From an uncultured Fibrobacteria bacterium (lineage in GTDB: Bacteria > Fibrobacterota > Fibrobacteria > UBA11236), in NCBI GenBank assembly GCA_963716395.1, contig OY970309.1:2624001-2688000 (forward strand): a DNA stretch of 64,000 bases, given 5' to 3'. Position numbers and translations under genes: made by a program. Positions 52,661-60,566 of the stretch are shown piece by piece. The notes under the pieces were generated by a model. That model had not been told where the DNA came from. It ran no database searches and saw nothing but the letters and a program-made list of their open reading frames with translations. The stretch's first letter is position 1; each line of letters starts with the position of its first letter.

Positions 52661-54817
52661 ATGGCGACCCTTAAGTTCGAACTGGAAGTGCAGGGCCAGC
52701 CGGCCGATCTCTTTACCGTGCTGGACTTCAACCTGGAGGAGGAATTGAGCCATTGTTTTCGCGCCACCGTGAATGCCACCAGCGAAAACGGCGACCTGGC
52801 CTACGACGATTTGGTGGGCAAGCCGGTCACGCTTACGGTGCAGGGCGAGGATTTTTCCGTGGAGCATTACGGCATGGTGAGCGGTTTCGTATTGCACCCC
52901 GATCACAGCCGGGAATTCGGCCGCGAGAGTTACCTCTACGTCCTCGAATTCGCCCCCCGCTTCAAACTGTTGGAATTCGCCGGGCAAAACCGCATTTTCC
53001 AGAAGCAGAAGGTCGAAGACATCGTGCAGGCCGTGCTTAAGGATCACGGTTTGCAGGGCGACGATTTTCGCTTCGACCTGCGCCAGCCCACGCGCGAACG
53101 CGAGTATACGGTGCAATACAACGAAACCGATCTGAATTTCGTATCGCGGCTTTTGGAATGCGAAGGCATCTACTATTTCTTCGACCACGAGAACAAAAAA
53201 GACACGGTGGTATTCGCCGACCATACCGACGCCGTGCGCCCCATTCCGCATACGCCCACCTTGGGGTACGAACCCGAAGTCGGCCTCAACCATCTGGCCA
53301 AGGACCATATCACCAGCATGCGCCGCGAACAGCAACTGGTGACCCAAAACGCGCGGGTGAAGGATTACAACGACCGCACGCCGGGCACTTCGATTATGGG
53401 GGTGTCGCAAGGCGCGCAAGGCCGCGGCGAACGCTACGACTTCGCCCCGGGCGTTCCCGACGCCGGCGCCGCCCATCGTTGGGCCGGCGTCGCCGCCGAC
53501 ACCTACCAGGCGCTCAAAATCACGCTCAAAGGCCACGGCGTGGCGCGGGCGTTACGGCCGGGTTACCGCTTTGAACTGGAAGACGGCGAGCATACCTCCT
53601 TTGCGGGCAAATACACGGTGGTACAGGTGACGCATCACGGCGATCAAAGCGAGGGCTTTCAGCGCGATCAGAGCCGGCTCAACTACTTGTGCGAATTCAT
53701 CTGCATTCCGGCGGCCACGGTCTTCCGGCCTTTGCGCGTGACCCACGCTCCCAAAATTTCCGGCATTCTCCTGGCCCGGGTCGACGGGCAAGACGGCGAT
53801 TACGCGTCGCTCGACGAAGAAGGGCGCTACCATGCCAAGCTGCCTTTCGATCTCACCGATGCCACCAACGGGCAGGCCACTTTGCCCATTCGCCTCAGCC
53901 AGCCCTATGCCGGGCCGGGCTACGGCACGCATTTTCCTCTGCATAACGGCAACGATTTGGTGCTGGCTTTTCTCAACGGCGACGCCGACCGGCCCATCGC
54001 CTTGGGCGCCATTCCCAATCCCTCCAACGCGTCGCCCGTCACCAGCCGCAACAAATCCGAAAGCGTGATTAAAACCGCTGCGGGCCACGAATTGCGCTTC
54101 GACGATCTCAAGGATAAAACCGCGGTGGATCTCACCACCGCGGGCAAACACGTTTTGTCATTCAAGGATGACAAGGATCATCAGGAGATCCGGGTCACTA
54201 CCACGGGCAAGCATGAGATGGTGTTCGACGACAAAAACAAAAACGTCCGCATCCTCACCGCCGATGGCGGCCACCAGGTGCTGCTCGACAACGACAAGCA
54301 GGCGCTGACGCTGCAAACCAAATACGGCCACCTGATCACGCTCGACGACGAGAAAAAAGCCCTGTCGATCCAAACCCATGAAGGGCACATCTTCAAGATC
54401 AGCGACGACGACAAGATGATTTCCCTGCAAGACAAAGACGGCAAGCACGTGCTGCAATTCGATCTCGGCGGCAGCAAGGTGTCGCTGACCACCGAAGGCG
54501 ATTTGTCCTTGACGGCCAAGGGCTCGCTTAACATCGAGGCCAAGGAGATCACCCTGGAAGCCAAACAGGGCGCGTTCAGCGCCAAAGCCATGAAAGATTT
54601 GACCTTGCAGGGCATGAACGTCAGCGCCAAGGCGCAGCAAAACCTCACGCTCGAAGGTACGGTGGCCGCGAACCTGAAGGGGCTCAACACCAAGGTTGAG
54701 GCCCAGGTCAATCTCGACCTCAAGGGCGGCGTGCAGACCAAGGTCAGCGGCACCATGGCCAATCTCGAAGGCAGCGCCATGGCCCAGGTCAAGGGCGCCG
54801 TGGTCATGATCAACTGA
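52661..54817 (+). CDS. vgrG: VgrG spike protein (orphan; no core T6SS genes in the window)
   Basis: RIFQ, REYTVQYNETDLNFVSRLLECEGIYYFF, DEEGRY, HFPL..G and F.NGDADRP, followed by C-terminal beta-repeats ending KGAVVMIN. Confidence 0.92.
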   Translation: MATLKFELEVQGQPADLFTVLDFNLEEELSHCFRATVNATSENGDLAYDDLVGKPVTLTVQGEDFSVEHYGMVSGFVLHPDHSREFGRESYLYVLEFAPRFKLLEFAGQNRIFQKQKVEDIVQAVLKDHGLQGDDFRFDLRQPTREREYTVQYNETDLNFVSRLLECEGIYYFFDHENKKDTVVFADHTDAVRPIPHTPTLGYEPEVGLNHLAKDHITSMRREQQLVTQNARVKDYNDRTPGTSIMGVSQGAQGRGERYDFAPGVPDAGAAHRWAGVAADTYQALKITLKGHGVARALRPGYRFELEDGEHTSFAGKYTVVQVTHHGDQSEGFQRDQSRLNYLCEFICIPAATVFRPLRVTHAPKISGILLARVDGQDGDYASLDEEGRYHAKLPFDLTDATNGQATLPIRLSQPYAGPGYGTHFPLHNGNDLVLAFLNGDADRPIALGAIPNPSNASPVTSRNKSESVIKTAAGHELRFDDLKDKTAVDLTTAGKHVLSFKDDKDHQEIRVTTTGKHEMVFDDKNKNVRILTADGGHQVLLDNDKQALTLQTKYGHLITLDDEKKALSIQTHEGHIFKISDDDKMISLQDKDGKHVLQFDLGGSKVSLTTEGDLSLTAKGSLNIEAKEITLEAKQGAFSAKAMKDLTLQGMNVSAKAQQNLTLEGTVAANLKGLNTKVEAQVNLDLKGGVQTKVSGTMANLEGSAMAQVKGAVVMIN

Positions 54818-54833
54818 GAACCGGAAGCGCGCG

Positions 54834-55931
54834 ATGGAATGGTTGAGCCGCGTGGTTCCCGGTTATGGTCCGGACGGCAGCCCGATTTTGTCGGTGCTGG
54901 CCAAACGCACCTATCGCTTTGCCAACGGCAAGCCCGCGGCCATCGACGCCGAGGAGCAGATCCCCTTTCTCGAAGCCGACGAATACTGGGGCCAGGGCCA
55001 GCCCGAACACGATCCCGTACGGCTGGAATCGGATGTGGTGGCCTACAAACCCATGACCGACGTGATTTTCATCGGCAAGGCGCATGCACCCAAGGGCAAG
55101 CAGGCCTATTACCTCGACGTCGGCATCCAGGTCGGAACGGCGCGCCAACTGGTGCGCGTAATTGGCGACCGCAAAGCCTACGTGACGGGTTCGGGGCTGG
55201 CCTTCACCGAACCCGAACCCTTTGCCGAAATGCCGCTGGATGCCGGGCGCGCCTATGGCGGCAAAGACGAAAAATCCGACGAGGGCATCGTGTACGTTTA
55301 CCCCAAAAATCCGGTGGGCAAAGGGTTCACGGTCAAGAACCACCCCAAAGCCGTGCAGGATTTGGCGCTGCCCAATCTCGAAGATCCGCGCAAGTTGCTG
55401 ACGCCGCAGAACCTGGCCCTGGGCCGTTTCGACCGCTGGAAGGAATGGCCCGATCCCGTGGGGCTCGGCTGCCGCGGCAAACAAAGCTATCCGCGCTATA
55501 CTTTGTCGGGACTGCCGCCGGAGCAATGGCCCGAAGCCGATACTGCCGCGCGCCGCGCCGTGAAACAAGCTCCCGAAATGGGAACCAGGCCGTCGGCGCA
55601 AAGCGCCGGGCCGCCGCGGCTCAATCCCGCGTTTTACAACGCCGCCGTTCCGGGCTTGTGTTTTCCACCGCTGCGCGGCGACGAAGCGGTGAAACTGGCC
55701 TACCTCGATCCCGAGGCTCCGCAATTTTCTTTCGCGCTTCCCGGCGAGCGGCCGCGCGCCTGGCTCGACGTGGGCGAAGGCCCCGAAGATATGCACATGG
55801 CCTTGCACACCGCCGTGATTTACAAAGAGACCAACCAGCTCACGATGGTGTGGCGCGGGTTCACGCGGTATCAGGGTCTCGAAGCCATGAAGGATTTCAC
55901 CCTGTTCGAGTTCGGGATCCACGAGGCTTGA
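54834..55931 (+). CDS. DUF2169 T6SS adaptor/chaperone
   Basis: ESD...YKP.TDV..GKAHAP, V.GDR, RAYGG, NPVGKGF, PNLE, FYNAA, LRGDE and VWRG; directly downstream of vgrG. Confidence 0.88.
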   Translation: MEWLSRVVPGYGPDGSPILSVLAKRTYRFANGKPAAIDAEEQIPFLEADEYWGQGQPEHDPVRLESDVVAYKPMTDVIFIGKAHAPKGKQAYYLDVGIQVGTARQLVRVIGDRKAYVTGSGLAFTEPEPFAEMPLDAGRAYGGKDEKSDEGIVYVYPKNPVGKGFTVKNHPKAVQDLALPNLEDPRKLLTPQNLALGRFDRWKEWPDPVGLGCRGKQSYPRYTLSGLPPEQWPEADTAARRAVKQAPEMGTRPSAQSAGPPRLNPAFYNAAVPGLCFPPLRGDEAVKLAYLDPEAPQFSFALPGERPRAWLDVGEGPEDMHMALHTAVIYKETNQLTMVWRGFTRYQGLEAMKDFTLFEFGIHEA

Positions 55932-57645
55932 ATGGCGGGCGGCGGTGCGCGAACCGGCAATAAGGCCCGCTATAGTCAGGCGGCGGTGCACGTGGTGTTT
56001 CAGACGCGGCCGGGTCCGGGCGACGATAAAATCATCCAAGGCGGGAATGCCACGCTGACCTTGAAATCCGGTCCGGTGTCGAACGTTGCGCCGCAAGATG
56101 GGGTTTACCACTTCGACATACCGTCCGGCGACGAGGGCTATTTGACAGATATTCGGAATCGATTACTTCGTGCAAATGTTGGGGTCCGGAGGCGTGGACG
56201 CGAACGCCGGCGCCATCACCCATTGGAAAGAGCCCTGGCTGCAGATTTCATCCTTGAAGGGCGTGCAACAGCGGCTGCAAATCCTGGGCTATTACACCGG
56301 AAAAGTCGACGGTTTGATGGGGGAGAAATCCGAGCGTGCTATCCTGGAATTCCAGGCCGATGAAGGCACTTTGCTCATCGACGGCGTGGCGGGACCCAAG
56401 ACCCAGAAAGCCCTGGACGCATTTTTCCAAAAGCATGGGAAGGATGCTTCGGGTAAGAACTGTTTGATCCGCCGCTATCTCTTGCGGTTCGAACGGGCGC
56501 GCACCGGAGACACTTCGGCCGATTGTCCCCATCCCGATTACCGGGCCGGCGATCTCACCGTGGTTCCCTACGGCTTCAAAAAAAGTTCGCCCGCCGATCG
56601 CGATCGCAATGTGGGCGACGCCTTCAACCTGGGTCTCGACGCCGACGCGTTCATGCCCGGCACCGATTTGATCTTGGTTCCCAAGTTCAAAAACAAATCC
56701 GACTTCGCTTTCGTGAGTTTACAAACTCCCGATGCTTCGTATCAGGCCGCCAATCGCTACGACAAGCCTTATTTGCGCATGATCCCGCGCGTTCAGGACG
56801 GCGAAGATGTTTTGAACCTGCACCTCGACCGCGAGAACGGGCCGGTGGTGGGTGCGGTACGCGTGAAGATCGGCGGCATGAAACAGGTCAAGACCACGGT
56901 GCATTTGGTCACCATTGCCGACGCCAAGGGCAAAACCGTTCCGCCTTGGACTCAGAAAGAGGCTTTGGATCTGTTGGGGATGATCAACGCGGTGTGGATG
57001 CCGATGGGGGTGGAATTTCAAGTTGCCCGAGTGCAATCGAACAACTTCACCGGGCTTACGGCCGGAACGGTTACGCAAGATTATAGTGGGAAAAAAGGGG
57101 GGCGGATCGAATATTTGGATCTCTGGTCCAAGTTTAATGTCGCCAACTCCATCAACATTTATTTTTGCGAACGGCTGATCGATTTGAATCTCGAAAATGG
57201 AAAGGTCGGGGAGGATTCGAATACTCTTGGGTTTGCGCTCCCAAGGAAGGCGTGGAAGAGTACAGTGAATCCAAATGGTCCCATCGGTTGTTGTGTCAGA
57301 AGGGATGCGGATTTTTTTAACCTCGCCTTGACTGTCGCCCATGAGCTGGGGCATGTGCTGAACCTTACTTGCCATAAGGACGCGCATTCAGATGACGACG
57401 GAACTCCTACTCCTTTTCGCCACGACATTTGGTCGCGTACCAGATTGATGTCGAAATATTCAGGATATTTTTTGGATGACCCGCCACGAGGATGGCAGAA
57501 GTCTACTTATGGAACGACTTCTGATAATGCTTTGCAACATGGCGCTTGGCTCACCGTGAAGCGACTTAAAAACGACGGCACCGACGATGAAATGGAGATT
57601 TCAAGAAAGGTGGCGAGTAACACGCGTGCAAATCCGCTTTACTGA
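55932..57645 (+). CDS. Putative secreted effector: PG_binding_1 domain plus metzincin-like Zn metalloprotease (about 570 aa, one +1 frameshift near 56145)
   Basis: VQQRLQILGY..GKVDG..G..SERAILEFQ...L.IDGVAGPKT (PGBD), TVAHELGHVLNLTCH and a later RLM (candidate Met-turn). Removing one base at about 56145 joins ORF 55932 to ORF 56170. Confidence 0.75.
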
Positions 57646-58552
57646 ATGCTGGGCCTGCGGCCTCTTGCTTTTTATCGGAGTGGGTTTAAGTGAAACCACG
57701 CCTCCGTCACACCACCAAATTCCTTCTTTAGGAACCGAGGAGAAACGTATGACACCGGAAGAAGTCGAAAGCCTGATTCGGGTCGATTCGGATAATGTTT
57801 CAAATGAAACATACGGTTCCATCGAAAAAAAAGATTACCCGTTTTTGAAAAAATATTTGCATGACCCTTCGGAAGGTGTACGTGAAAGGCTAACCTTGCT
57901 GCTTCAAGATTTCAGCCAACCTTTTTGTTTCAATTATTATCTGGAACTTCTTAAAGATACCAGCGCTTCGATTCGCAATCTGGCTTGCGAGGGTATCGGT
58001 ATGATGGGAAGCGCCGTGGATGGAAAGGCGCTTTTAGCTGAGATCAAAAGGCTGAATTCTATACATTCAGATGGCCGGGAATATGGCGTCATTGATCTGA
58101 TTCTTGCGATCGGCAACACGCGGAATCCGAAAATGTTGGAACCTCTTTTATTTTTGTACCAACACGAAAAAGATCCCGACATCCGCCCCGCCTATCAAAA
58201 AGCCACCGCGAAGCTTGGTTACAAGAAAACCATGCACGAAATAGAATTGGAGTTGATTGGATCTGATGAGTTCGGGAAAAGCAGTGCTCTTGCCAAAGTG
58301 AATTATATCGATTCTCCAGAGTGGGTGGAAAAGGTGAAGCCTCTTCTTCTCGACGAACGAGTCGGCTGGTCGGCACCCATGGGGCCAAAAAGAATCACCC
58401 TCCGGGTTTGCGATCTGGCCGTCAATACCATGCGCAAAATCGACCCGGAAAAACGAATTGCCTTCCCTGAAAAACCTCTCGGCATGCATTATTCCGAGGA
58501 GGAGATGACAGCGATACGTAAAGCTTACGGAGTGGACGGAAAAAACAAATAA
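57587..58552 (+). CDS. HEAT-repeat immunity-like protein 1 (signal peptide; start at 57587 or GTG 57626)
   Basis: LKD....IR.LA..G HEAT units and RVCDLAV; paralogous to the next two ORFs; directly after the effector. Confidence 0.7.
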   Translation: MKWRFQERWRVTRVQIRFTECWACGLLLFIGVGLSETTPPSHHQIPSLGTEEKRMTPEEVESLIRVDSDNVSNETYGSIEKKDYPFLKKYLHDPSEGVRERLTLLLQDFSQPFCFNYYLELLKDTSASIRNLACEGIGMMGSAVDGKALLAEIKRLNSIHSDGREYGVIDLILAIGNTRNPKMLEPLLFLYQHEKDPDIRPAYQKATAKLGYKKTMHEIELELIGSDEFGKSSALAKVNYIDSPEWVEKVKPLLLDERVGWSAPMGPKRITLRVCDLAVNTMRKIDPEKRIAFPEKPLGMHYSEEEMTAIRKAYGVDGKNK

Positions 58553-58560
58553 AGAGGCCT

Positions 58561-58686
58561 CCTTTTCGAAGCGATATTCGGTCGCGCAGCCGTCTGACGG
58601 CGAAACGACTCAAAAACGATGGCACCGACGATGAAATGGATATTTCCAGAGATGCAGTAGATGGCAAACCGAACCCTCTTTATTAA
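58561..58686 (+). pseudogene. Orphan, internally deleted copy of the effector C-terminus
   Basis: Translates as PFRSDIRSRSRL-TAKRLKNDGTDDEMDISRDAVDGKPNPLY*, against the effector PFRHDIWSRTRL-[35 aa]-TVKRLKNDGTDDEMEISRKVASNTRANPLY*. Confidence 0.85.
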
Positions 58687-58724
58687 ATGGAGCTTCGGGG
58701 CGACGGCCGGGAACCCGTACTAAT

Positions 58725-59630
58725 ATGGGCAGAAGGGCTGCGGGAGTTTTTTGCTGTGCTGTCCTCTATGTGTTCCAAATCCACGCAGCGGCCCTTAAGG
58801 CTGCGGATTCAAAGGAAAAGTTTATGACCGAAGAAGAGCTTAAGAAGGCCATTGAGGATCCGCGGAATCCCATCTATACCCAAGCGGGACTGGCGACTAT
58901 CGAGAAAAAGGAATATCCTTTTTTCAAAAACTATGTCAATCCGGCCACGACCTCTGAAGAGGTGCGTGAAGATTTGCTGGTGATTTTAAATACAATTAAT
59001 CAGTCTTGGTGCTATAAATACTATTTGCAATTTTTAAAAGATCCCAGTTCTTCCGTTCGCATATCGGCCGCGAGCGGAATGGCCAGATTGGATTCCGGGG
59101 TTCATGCCGACGAATTAATGGCGGAAATATCCCGACAAAATTCGTTGCATCAGGAAGATCGCACGAGTGTGGTGGGAAATTTGATTTTGGCGGTAGGAAA
59201 TAGTCGGGATCCGAAATATCTGGAGCCGGTTCTTGCCCTGCGGGAAAATGAGTCGGATCCGGATATTCGTTACGCTTATTACAAAGCCGCGGCGAAGCTG
59301 GGGTATCAAAAATTTTTGCGCGAAATTGAACGAAATCTGAAATTCGACGATGGGCAAGGGAAGGACTCTGCCTTGGGCATCGTTTTTTACCTGAAGGATC
59401 CCGTCTGGATCGATAAGATAAAACCGTTGCTGTTGGACGAAGACTCTTCTCTGAGTTATCCCCTAGGGCGAAAAACAATTCTATTCAGAGTATGCGATGC
59501 GACGGTAAACGTATTGCATGAAATCGATCCCGAAAAGAAAATCCCGTTCGAGCCAAGATCCCGACATTACTTGCCGGATGAATTAAAAGAGATCAGGAAA
59601 ATTTACGGAGTGCTGGAGAATCCGAAATAG
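58725..59630 (+). CDS. HEAT-repeat immunity-like protein 2 (signal peptide)
   Basis: Paralog motifs IEKKEYPF, LILAVGN.RDPK, AKLGY, KPLLLD, RVCD and IDPEK. Confidence 0.75.
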   Translation: MGRRAAGVFCCAVLYVFQIHAAALKAADSKEKFMTEEELKKAIEDPRNPIYTQAGLATIEKKEYPFFKNYVNPATTSEEVREDLLVILNTINQSWCYKYYLQFLKDPSSSVRISAASGMARLDSGVHADELMAEISRQNSLHQEDRTSVVGNLILAVGNSRDPKYLEPVLALRENESDPDIRYAYYKAAAKLGYQKFLREIERNLKFDDGQGKDSALGIVFYLKDPVWIDKIKPLLLDEDSSLSYPLGRKTILFRVCDATVNVLHEIDPEKKIPFEPRSRHYLPDELKEIRKIYGVLENPK

Positions 59631-59639
59631 CGGAACCGG

Positions 59640-60566
59640 ATGCGGCACGTTATTACCGATACGGCTTCGCGGGCCGTTTTATTCATGGTTATGGCGATAA
59701 TGGTTGTGGTTGATCCGGTGCGCTCCGAAGCAGCTTTGGCGGTCCCAAAGGGAAAATTTATGACATCGGAAGAACTGAAGCAGGCTATCGAAGATCCCCA
59801 CAGCCCGGTTTTCAGCAATGAGGGTATGGCCGTCATCGAGAAAAAGGAATACCCGTTTCTCAAAGACTATGTGAATCCGAAAACCACGACGGAGGATGTG
59901 CGCGAGAATTTGCTTACGGTTTTGCAGTACATCAACCAACCCTGGTGCTACCAATATTATTTGGAACTGCTGAAAGATCCGCTGTATCAAATCCGTATTC
60001 CGGCGTCGGAAGGCATGGCGGATTTGAAATTCGGAGTCAATGCTGCGGAGTTGACGGCGGAAATTTCCCGCCAGAACTCAGTAGGCCAAGAAGATCGCAA
60101 AGAGGTGGTTTCGAACCTGGTGCTGGCCGTCGGAAATACACGCGATCCCAAAGCCTTGGAACCGCTGCTCGTGCTATACAAATCCGAGAAGGATTCCGAG
60201 GTCCGCGCCGCCTACCAGGAGGCCAGCGCGAAGCTTGGTTATAAGAAAACCATTCGGGAAATAGAATTGGAATTAATCGGATCTGACGGGTTCGGGAAAG
60301 TCCGTGCCCTGGTAAAGGTGAATTATATCGACACACAGGATTGGATCGAGAAGGTGAAGCCTTTGCTTCTCGATGCCCAAACAGGTTGGACCGCTCCCAT
60401 GGGTCCGGCTACGCTCACTCTACGCGTCTGTGACCTCGCGGTAAATACACTACGCAAAATCGATCCGGAGAAGAAAATCACCTTTCCCGAAAAGTCACGC
60501 GGCGTGCATTACTCCGAAGCGGAAATGCAGGAAGCGCGTAAGGCCTACGCGGTCGCTAACAAATAA
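59640..60566 (+). CDS. HEAT-repeat immunity-like protein 3 (signal peptide; apparent mosaic of 2 and 1)
   Basis: Same family motifs; the N-half resembles paralog 2 and the C-half resembles paralog 1. Confidence 0.75.
   Translation: MRHVITDTASRAVLFMVMAIMVVVDPVRSEAALAVPKGKFMTSEELKQAIEDPHSPVFSNEGMAVIEKKEYPFLKDYVNPKTTTEDVRENLLTVLQYINQPWCYQYYLELLKDPLYQIRIPASEGMADLKFGVNAAELTAEISRQNSVGQEDRKEVVSNLVLAVGNTRDPKALEPLLVLYKSEKDSEVRAAYQEASAKLGYKKTIREIELELIGSDGFGKVRALVKVNYIDTQDWIEKVKPLLLDAQTGWTAPMGPATLTLRVCDLAVNTLRKIDPEKKITFPEKSRGVHYSEAEMQEARKAYAVANK

Follow-up and report, generated by a model that had tools for sequence, protein, structure and literature searches.

What is the purpose of a tight run of seven co-oriented reading frames, all on the forward strand, that opens with a vgrG spike gene and closes with three paralogous HEAT-repeat genes in the genome of an uncultured Fibrobacteria bacterium? 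The run spans positions 52661-60566 of the 64,000-nucleotide stretch analysed here (hereafter the window; contig OY970309.1), for which an earlier reading of the letters alone (the original prediction) had proposed a protease toxin family with a dedicated family of HEAT-repeat inhibitors. Drawing on gene content, synteny, co-occurrence, fold class and composition, we consider it probable that the locus serves a canonical type VI secretion system (T6SS) as an auxiliary vgrG island, carrying an undescribed protease effector together with its HEAT immunity; the effector/immunity family would thus be new, the kind of system well known. Every gene that had been named, from vgrG and DUF2169 through the protein with a peptidoglycan-binding domain and HExxH motif to the three HEAT paralogs, is found where it had been placed, and the short gaps measure as claimed, with 16 nt between vgrG and DUF2169 and 0 nt between DUF2169 and the ATG at 55932, while the start of HEAT paralog 1 overlaps the 3' end of the effector. 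The features are:

52661..54817, +, vgrG (tssI), 718 aa; Phage_GPD 1.4e-72 (245 bits), Phage_base_V 4.1e-6 (27.5 bits)
54834..55931, +, DUF2169 (TvpA-type) spike chaperone, 365 aa; PF09937 E=4.9e-63, 213.7 bits, cut-off 25
55932..56144, +, effector N-terminal fragment, about 71 codons, small beta domain; homology to full-length effectors
56142..56148, +, frame change from frame 0 to +1; seen in the sequence and translations, homologues being colinear across the site
56176..57645, +, effector main open reading frame (ORF), 489 aa from ATG 56176 (GTG 56170 possible); PG_binding_1 5.8e-12
57587..58552, +, HEAT paralog 1, candidate cognate immunity gene; HEAT_2 7.5e-8
58561..58686, +, orphan effector 3' tip with a stop codon at its end; tblastn match to the effector C-terminus
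58725..59630, +, HEAT paralog 2, 301 aa; HEAT_2 4.7e-7
59640..60566, +, HEAT paralog 3, 308 aa, with a strongly hydrophobic N-terminus (Kyte-Doolittle 3.30); HEAT_2 1.9e-6

Do the effector and the HEAT genes belong together? A profile built from 10 close HEAT proteins and searched against the 1375 ORFs of 17 loci matched the ORF directly downstream of the effector in 10/10 other assessable loci, two metagenome contigs (1.3e-17 and 1.5e-13) among them, with E-values down to 2.4e-12; apart from these it matched only two further HEAT copies close by and an incomplete ORF where the L034 contig ends (4e-4). The linked loci extend beyond the phylum to an Ignavibacteriaceae metagenome-assembled genome (L009, 2.7e-18), two other phyla being covered in all, and the order VgrG-DUF2169-(PAAR)-effector-HEAT recurs in L032, L033, L034, L036 and L037. 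The two families also share genomes among the 296 genomes of the phylum that were surveyed: full-length HEAT matches (E<1e-40) occur in G000, G248, G254, G257, G259, G260, G261, G048 and G066, with a fragment in G262, and matches to the effector protease domain occur in G000, G248, G254, G257, G259, G260, G261, G262 and G048, the G066 effector being represented by its N-terminal piece only. G254 adds one more adjacent effector-HEAT pair, on which by itself no conclusion depends, and weaker HEAT matches in the phylum are generic repeats within longer proteins only. The survey of effector/HEAT pairing that had been suggested as a check returned linkage at both scales. Among the matches listed, scanning with the effector alignment gave 1 true relative among 6 loci in the genome contigs and 2 among 5 loci in the metagenome contigs, the rest being PG_binding only, and a word-indexed search with the HEAT protein returned five proteins, three of them the window's own.

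Structurally, the predicted complex of the protease with HEAT paralog 1 (effector residues 95-489, paralog residues 52-321) reached an ipSAE of 0.61 (runs 0.63, 0.44 and 0.61), against 0.00 for the best of three controls, with the runs sharing at least 55% of contacts and a partner pLDDT of at least 85; the tool's mark is reached by 58/80 solved complexes and 2/110 mismatched pairs, rates that hold only roughly because the alignments used here were made by us. The predicted interface involves effector residues 386, E390 and H393 and HEAT residues 261 and 263-268, so that a beta hairpin of the HEAT protein would lie over the HExxH cleft; the model supports binding at the active site without showing it. 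Between paralogs 1 and 2, identity is 8/39 at the predicted interface and 117/221 elsewhere; the corresponding values are 10/39 and 141/221 for paralogs 2 and 3, and 22/41 and 135/221 for paralogs 1 and 3, so that paralog 2 differs most from the other two at the interface. On the effector side, residues 301-350 are the least conserved with respect to close relatives, and they overlap the predicted interface loops. Given this divergent predicted interface, paralog 2 probably neutralises a different effector allele.

What kind of enzyme is the effector? We modelled its fold on the full-length protein of the closest related locus (L032, 61% identical) with 38 aligned sequences and mapped the domain limits by alignment (pLDDT 86.7, pTM 0.88). 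The domains in that protein and in the window copy are:

L032 protein: beta domain, residues 25-106; three-helix PG_binding_1, 116-176; Ig-like domain, ~190-328; catalytic domain, ~328-571
Window, +: PG_binding_1, ~56263-56415; Ig-like beta domain; metzincin-fold peptidase, ~56900-57645; HELGH motif, 57340-57354

The toxin domain is predicted to be a metzincin-fold peptidase. Foldseek matched the catalytic domain to ulilysin (7.8e-6), with ADAMs, snake-venom enzymes and fragilysin at probability 1.00, and VIA gave ulilysin (Z 11.7, rmsd 3.0, 183 aligned), ADAM17 (Z 11.6), atrolysin (Z 11.3) and mirolysin (Z 10.8); searched against the PDB, the family profile found adamalysins (4.9e-6). Across the family alignment HELGH never varies, and H389, E390, H393, H404, D417 and M425 are likewise invariant, the last in an 'RLM' motif 21 residues after the putative third ligand, H404. 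Canonical metzincins carry the motif HExxHxxGxxH/D. In the effector family the putative third ligand stands +11 or more residues after the second histidine, where the canonical spacing is 6, and glycine at +3 is seen only in distant members. The window effector scores 13.1 bits against Reprolysin_3 (cut-off 22.4) and 12.2 bits against M10 (cut-off 24), and the L036 homologue 19.3 bits against M43 (cut-off 23); together with the third-histidine spacing, these sub-cut-off scores point to an uncatalogued metzincin-like family. The Ig-like part has middling fold matches only (Z about 7). The N-terminal beta domain has no Pfam match at E<=1; a word-indexed protein search with effector residues 1-71 against longer proteins gave no match (51 candidates, none scored), and the ESM Atlas gave no usable match, neither of which is proof of novelty. 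Among the best 150 matches of a search of representative proteins, at least 44 single-stretch rows (50%-identity clusters), some of them split forms, include the protease domain; we counted such rows by eye, since the 405 proteins found at E<=1e-30 are inflated by proteins with multiple PG_binding repeats.

The immunity candidates are HEAT proteins by domain score, paralogs 1, 2 and 3 reaching 33.0, 30.4 and 28.5 bits against a HEAT_2 cut-off of 27.7, and they are 43-54% identical to one another. The model of paralog 1 (pLDDT 83.8) has 13 helices in HEAT-like repeats and one beta hairpin at residues 259-273, and its Foldseek matches are alphaRep (3.6e-5), CpcE/F and PP2A-A. The original prediction had described all three as signal-peptide proteins, and this part of it stands with a qualification: each carries an N-terminal hydrophobic 12-mer (mean Kyte-Doolittle 2.4-3.3), and 11/14 proteins of the HEAT family have one with a mean of at least 2.0, but leaders were judged by hydrophobicity and by eye and the starts are ambiguous. 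A lipobox was flagged by script in 2/14 (L009 and L038) and found by eye in a third, L015. Alternative starts of paralog 1 are GTG 57626 and ATG 57749, the latter with a GGAG 8-11 nt upstream. A methionine also stands at the start of the folded part in all three paralogs (57587-57760, 58725-58830 and 59640-59765) and in most relatives. The HEAT genes might make both exported and cytoplasmic forms.

Compositionally, the fall in GC that had been noted from the C-terminal part of the effector onward is real, GC dropping from about 0.60 to 0.44-0.51 over 57000-60250. GC at third codon positions (GC3) is 0.72-0.78 in vgrG, DUF2169, the N-terminal fragment (0.73) and effector residues 1-260, and steps down at the start of the protease domain to 0.54 for residues 261-489, with 0.49, 0.51 and 0.61 in the three HEAT genes. 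The orphan effector tip is likewise borne out: in the gap that separates paralog 1 from paralog 2, immediately before the latter, positions 58576-58683 match effector residues 455-491 at 59% identity (tblastn E=5.5e-7), the only second match below E=1 in the window. Its frame, read from 58561, covers the last ~40 effector residues with ~35 internal residues missing, and a 57-nt DNA stretch aligns to the effector's own 3' end; it appears to be what is left, after an internal deletion, of the C-terminus of a different effector allele. The marks of a polymorphic toxin locus are all present here (an orphan tip, immunity paralogs in tandem and a toxin domain at which the composition breaks), and the foreign composition of the protease domain and HEAT genes, together with the tip, suggests that protease-immunity cassettes have been swapped successively by recombination and older immunity genes kept. 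The flanks are ordinary opposite-strand genes (RadC, an alpha/beta hydrolase and a LOG-family gene), and no tRNA lies within 40000-64000 of the window; on these grounds an origin as a mobile element was rejected.

How would such an effector be delivered? The original prediction had placed a contractile system elsewhere in the genome, and a search for core genes located it about 640 kb from the window: a T6SS-i core at C1:3309537-3323283 in which TssK, L, M, A, B, C, Hcp, F and G all exceed their Pfam cut-offs, and which we call complete on the evidence of these nine components. Its order is tssK-L-M-A-B-C-hcp-(gap)-F-G, without a vgrG of its own, with an SMC gene upstream and a solute-binding protein gene downstream. 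The window vgrG, whose product scores 337.2 bits against TIGR03361 (cut-off 186.35), is the only Phage_GPD match across the 3.75-Mb genome, which is a complete contig, and the DUF2169 gene, 61-66% identical to those of related loci, gives a single tblastn match in the whole genome. A Fibrobacterota host, which had been thought unusual, turns out not to be so, as TssC is present in 115/296 genomes and 44/70 genera of the phylum; within the window's own genus, T6SS (TssC) occurs in only 1/11 other genomes.

The absence of a recognisable PAAR or DUF4150 protein, also singled out as unusual, is true of the window, where neither was found, but does not describe the system. In L032, L036, L037, L038 and L009 the gene immediately before the effector (and after DUF2169 or VgrG) encodes a PAAR_motif protein of 361-389 aa, and in L033 and L034 a longer PAAR-toxin fusion takes that place, followed by small ORFs and then the effector. 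This tip protein matches PAAR_motif at 5.6e-19 and does not match DUF4150 at E<=1; DUF4150 (PF13665) has no match anywhere in the genome at E<=0.01. Two orthologous PAAR-motif (PAAR-toxin) genes lie elsewhere in the genome (C1:54773-56491 and C1:1180984-1182813), both 57% identical over ~360 aa to the PAAR gene of the closest related locus. With relatives carrying PAAR between DUF2169 and the effector, and two such genes at other sites, the window island is the exception, and its missing PAAR is peculiar to this locus and does not characterise the system. The two genomic PAAR-motif proteins (572 and 609 aa) are almost identical over their first ~380 residues and divergent in their C-terminal domains, which by eye resemble M23/LytM-type peptidases. 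Each of the two genes is followed by small ORFs with hydrophobic N-termini, and the ORF at C1:57859-58602 repeats the end of the shared PAAR scaffold and resembles an orphan toxin module.

Several points weigh against this interpretation as a whole. Toxicity, secretion, binding and rescue stand as computational predictions. The interface comes from one predictor and shallow alignments (37 and 14 rows), and the contrast between interface and non-interface identity depends on that complex model. The catalytic domain departs from the canonical HExxHxxGxxH motif, and the Pfam M10, M12B and M43 models all stay below their cut-offs. The starts that gene callers give paralogs 1 and 2 lie at an internal methionine and so exclude the leader. 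The PG_binding_1 domains of vgrG loci may, as proposed in PMC10673891, serve recognition between VgrG and effector and not targeting, which makes the presence of PG_binding_1 here weak and ambiguous evidence for a periplasmic or cell-wall target. That the N-terminal domain is a loading handle we purely infer, and neither the word-indexed search nor the ESM Atlas gave a relative that pairs it with another toxin domain. Finally, the window's effector is frame-shifted at a site that public reads leave uncovered, so this copy may yield no deliverable toxin.

Could the same genes mean something else? Armadillo-like repeat proteins belong to the DUF2169 'synteny type A' clusters, and helical-repeat accessory proteins beside DUF2169 are described in PMC11883445, so the HEAT proteins might be accessory to the T6SS or help to load it; HEAT solenoids serve generally as scaffolds for binding, and the leaderless starts that gene callers choose for paralogs 1 and 2, like the GGAG before ATG 57749, would suit such a role. 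We nevertheless hold it to be quite improbable, for the HEAT genes lie downstream of the effector and not between DUF2169 and PAAR, and the hydrophobic leader common in the family would carry the proteins out of the cytoplasm, the compartment in which loading happens. A loading function also sits poorly with paralogs arrayed in tandem whose predicted interface diverges, with the orphan toxin tip, and with a complex model that sets the HEAT protein on the catalytic cleft. T6SS-associated cell-wall enzymes exist in other bacteria, and the PG_binding_1 domain would equally fit a protease that is a housekeeping or self-acting envelope enzyme, opening the cell's own peptidoglycan for T6SS assembly, for instance, with HEAT as its regulator and no toxin at all. 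This seems to us less credible still: a leader-like hydrophobic N-terminal segment occurs in 0/14 effector-family proteins, so that the protease cannot reach its own periplasm by Sec, and its position in a vgrG-PAAR operon is typical of cargo. Foreign GC3, the orphan tip and the immunity paralogs are hallmarks of polymorphic loci, and the effector is carried by only ~10 of the 115 TssC-positive genomes of the phylum, which means that it is not a core part of the machine.

A separate question, bearing on the window copy only, is why its effector is in two pieces. The original prediction was right that a peptidoglycan-binding domain and HExxH are both present, but it missed that they are not in one ORF with the N-terminus: the frame opened by ATG 55932 gives a sensible product to near 56144 and then continues out of frame to 56363, while the PG-binding/HExxH part lies in the +1 frame from 56170/56176, a frame closed upstream by a TGA at 56143-56145. 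In relatives the two parts are joined, with eleven homologues of 550-583 aa holding both in one chain, the effector of related loci forming a single ORF of 541-575 codons, and the sole 494-aa database homologue sitting in a 571-codon open frame of its own contig. Programmed frameshifting was rejected, the site having neither a slippery run nor an in-frame stop context. The window copy may be decayed, or the frame change may equally well be a consensus error of the assembly, the organism then making an intact effector of ~565 aa. An assembly error would agree with a genome taken from an uncultured organism and with two effector pieces free of further lesions, the N-terminal fragment being native in GC3 and 50-56% identical to residues 1-71 of full-length effectors in L032-L037, as in the rest of the protein. 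Against it stand the lack of any homopolymer longer than 3 at the site and the intact state of the long genes checked (TssM, 1306 aa; SMC, 1197 aa; VgrG, 718 aa), and both an island without the relatives' PAAR gene and the rarity of T6SS in the genus would fit a system in decay. Public reads (one soil-metagenome run, X1, 0.05 of words) do not cover 56142-56148. What that run does contain is a contig of 151 nt that is identical to 57262-57412, a part of the protease domain; at least one public soil sample must therefore carry this allele or one very close to it. Split effector forms also occur among the matches of the representative search, and in two metagenome contigs (L015:9051-11421 and L016:75-2477) the effector is naturally two ORFs, split just after PG_binding_1 into the N-domain with PG_binding and the Ig-like part with the protease; there a LysM-like protein (by eye), and not DUF2169/PAAR, lies upstream.

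If the locus is, as we think probable, an auxiliary T6SS island, we infer a delivery route, a periplasmic site of action, a mode of inhibition and a class of substrate as follows. A single VgrG spike would be matured by the DUF2169 chaperone with PAAR proteins, here encoded at two other loci, and the effector would be loaded through its small N-terminal beta domain. Having no signal peptide, the effector would be fired into the periplasm of neighbouring Gram-negative cells, where the metzincin-fold zinc endopeptidase would cleave an envelope protein or a peptidoglycan-associated substrate of the prey. Exported HEAT solenoids would protect producers and kin by clamping the protease, with the beta hairpin (consensus xPxGPx) laid across the active-site cleft. 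A real and recent inactivation of the effector would leave an immunity-only island. The central proposal of the original prediction, a protease toxin with a dedicated HEAT inhibitor family, thus gains from the metzincin fold, the 10/10 adjacency, the co-occurrence and the cleft-covering model, and is qualified by the interrupted effector of the window itself.

Further features were seen in the related loci. The second HEAT copy of the closest related locus (G257:C424:21765-22655; L032 10751-11659) carries an in-frame TAA, so this surplus immunity gene is decaying. In four loci the HEAT gene is followed by a conserved ORF whose N-terminus is similar throughout (L036:9951-10886, L032:11589-12626, L009:7726-8718 and L038:11428-13266), preceded in L009 and L038 by a small ORF that is DUF1795/Eag-like by eye; its L036 copy has no Pfam or NCBIfam match. 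The window lacks this ORF, possibly a second module of cargo-effector type.

How does the pair compare with what is known? Tandem arrays of alpha-solenoid periplasmic immunity proteins exist, for example the Tli5 paralogs of P. aeruginosa, which are built of Sel1 repeats and answer phospholipase effectors. As is predicted for the HEAT genes, these are exported helical-repeat immunity paralogs standing in tandem beside a T6SS effector that acts in the periplasm; they differ in repeat type (Sel1 versus HEAT) and toxin (lipase versus protease). Among metzincins (ulilysin/pappalysin M43, adamalysin/ADAM M12B, mirolysin and fragilysin), the catalytic fold is alike (VIA Z 10-11.7, 170-185 residues aligned), HExxH is shared, and the family's invariant methionine may correspond to the metzincin Met-turn, whereas the spacing of the third histidine, the N-terminal modules (beta domain, PG_binding_1 and Ig-like) and the predicted dedicated HEAT inhibitor, in place of a pro-domain or TIMP-like inhibitor, set the effector family apart. 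Functionally, the closest described systems are the Tpe-Tpi metallopeptidase pairs of T6SS (the VgrG2b C-terminal domain of P. aeruginosa with PA0261, and Tpe1-Tpi1 of A. baylyi; PMC6899460), which combine an HExxH effector acting in the prey periplasm with periplasm-exposed immunity, as we predict for the window family. There the VgrG2b toxin is an extension of VgrG and the immunity protein small and disulfide-bonded, whereas the window effector is a free cargo protein with a metzincin-like fold and a HEAT solenoid as its candidate immunity. VgrG2b did not appear in the PDB profile search (E<=1) or among the top 50 Foldseek/VIA rows, and no direct sequence comparison with Tpe/Tpi was made. 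In Listeria, a phage-derived metzincin lies beside a TIMP-like lipoprotein (PMC8235301), a likewise bacterial metzincin encoded next to a dedicated exported protein inhibitor, though Gram-positive, prophage-linked, unrelated to T6SS and with a TIMP-like inhibitor fold.

For the spike, DUF2169/TvpA chaperones serve DUF4150 'PIPY' tips (PMC11883445, PMC13373197), and Sachar et al. (PMC11883445) report that DUF2169 rarely adjoins PAAR genes. The vgrG-DUF2169-tip order of the relatives corresponds to the 'synteny type B' of that paper, with a single-domain DUF2169 protein in both; unlike there, the relatives' tips are PAAR_motif and not DUF4150, and in the window the effector itself adjoins DUF2169. 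A literature search found no description of a metzincin-type T6SS effector with HEAT immunity, although members of the family could stand in the supplementary tables to PMC7714669, PMC10673891 or PMC11883445.

Taking these elements jointly, we tentatively suggest, at somewhat less than an even chance, that HEAT solenoids are an unrecognised class of metzincin inhibitor, a clamp with a conserved beta hairpin in the cleft and an interface that diversifies with effector alleles, and that a new loading route exists in which the small beta domain at the N-terminus, along with PG_binding_1, attaches the effector to a genuine PAAR tip, by way of that tip's long C-terminal extension, the tip itself unusually needing a DUF2169 chaperone. 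The logic of the system (vgrG island, cargo toxin, periplasmic immunity and orphan cassettes) is textbook, and its value lies in new protein families from an understudied phylum. If true, these loci would represent a metzincin-fold antibacterial T6SS effector family spread across at least Fibrobacterota, Ignavibacteria-like and Zixibacteria-labelled genomes; DUF2169 chaperones would work with genuine PAAR-motif tips, widening a rule drawn from Proteobacteria; and metzincins would gain their first protein inhibitor of the HEAT type, with a bearing on inhibitor design and on the evolution of immunity specificity.

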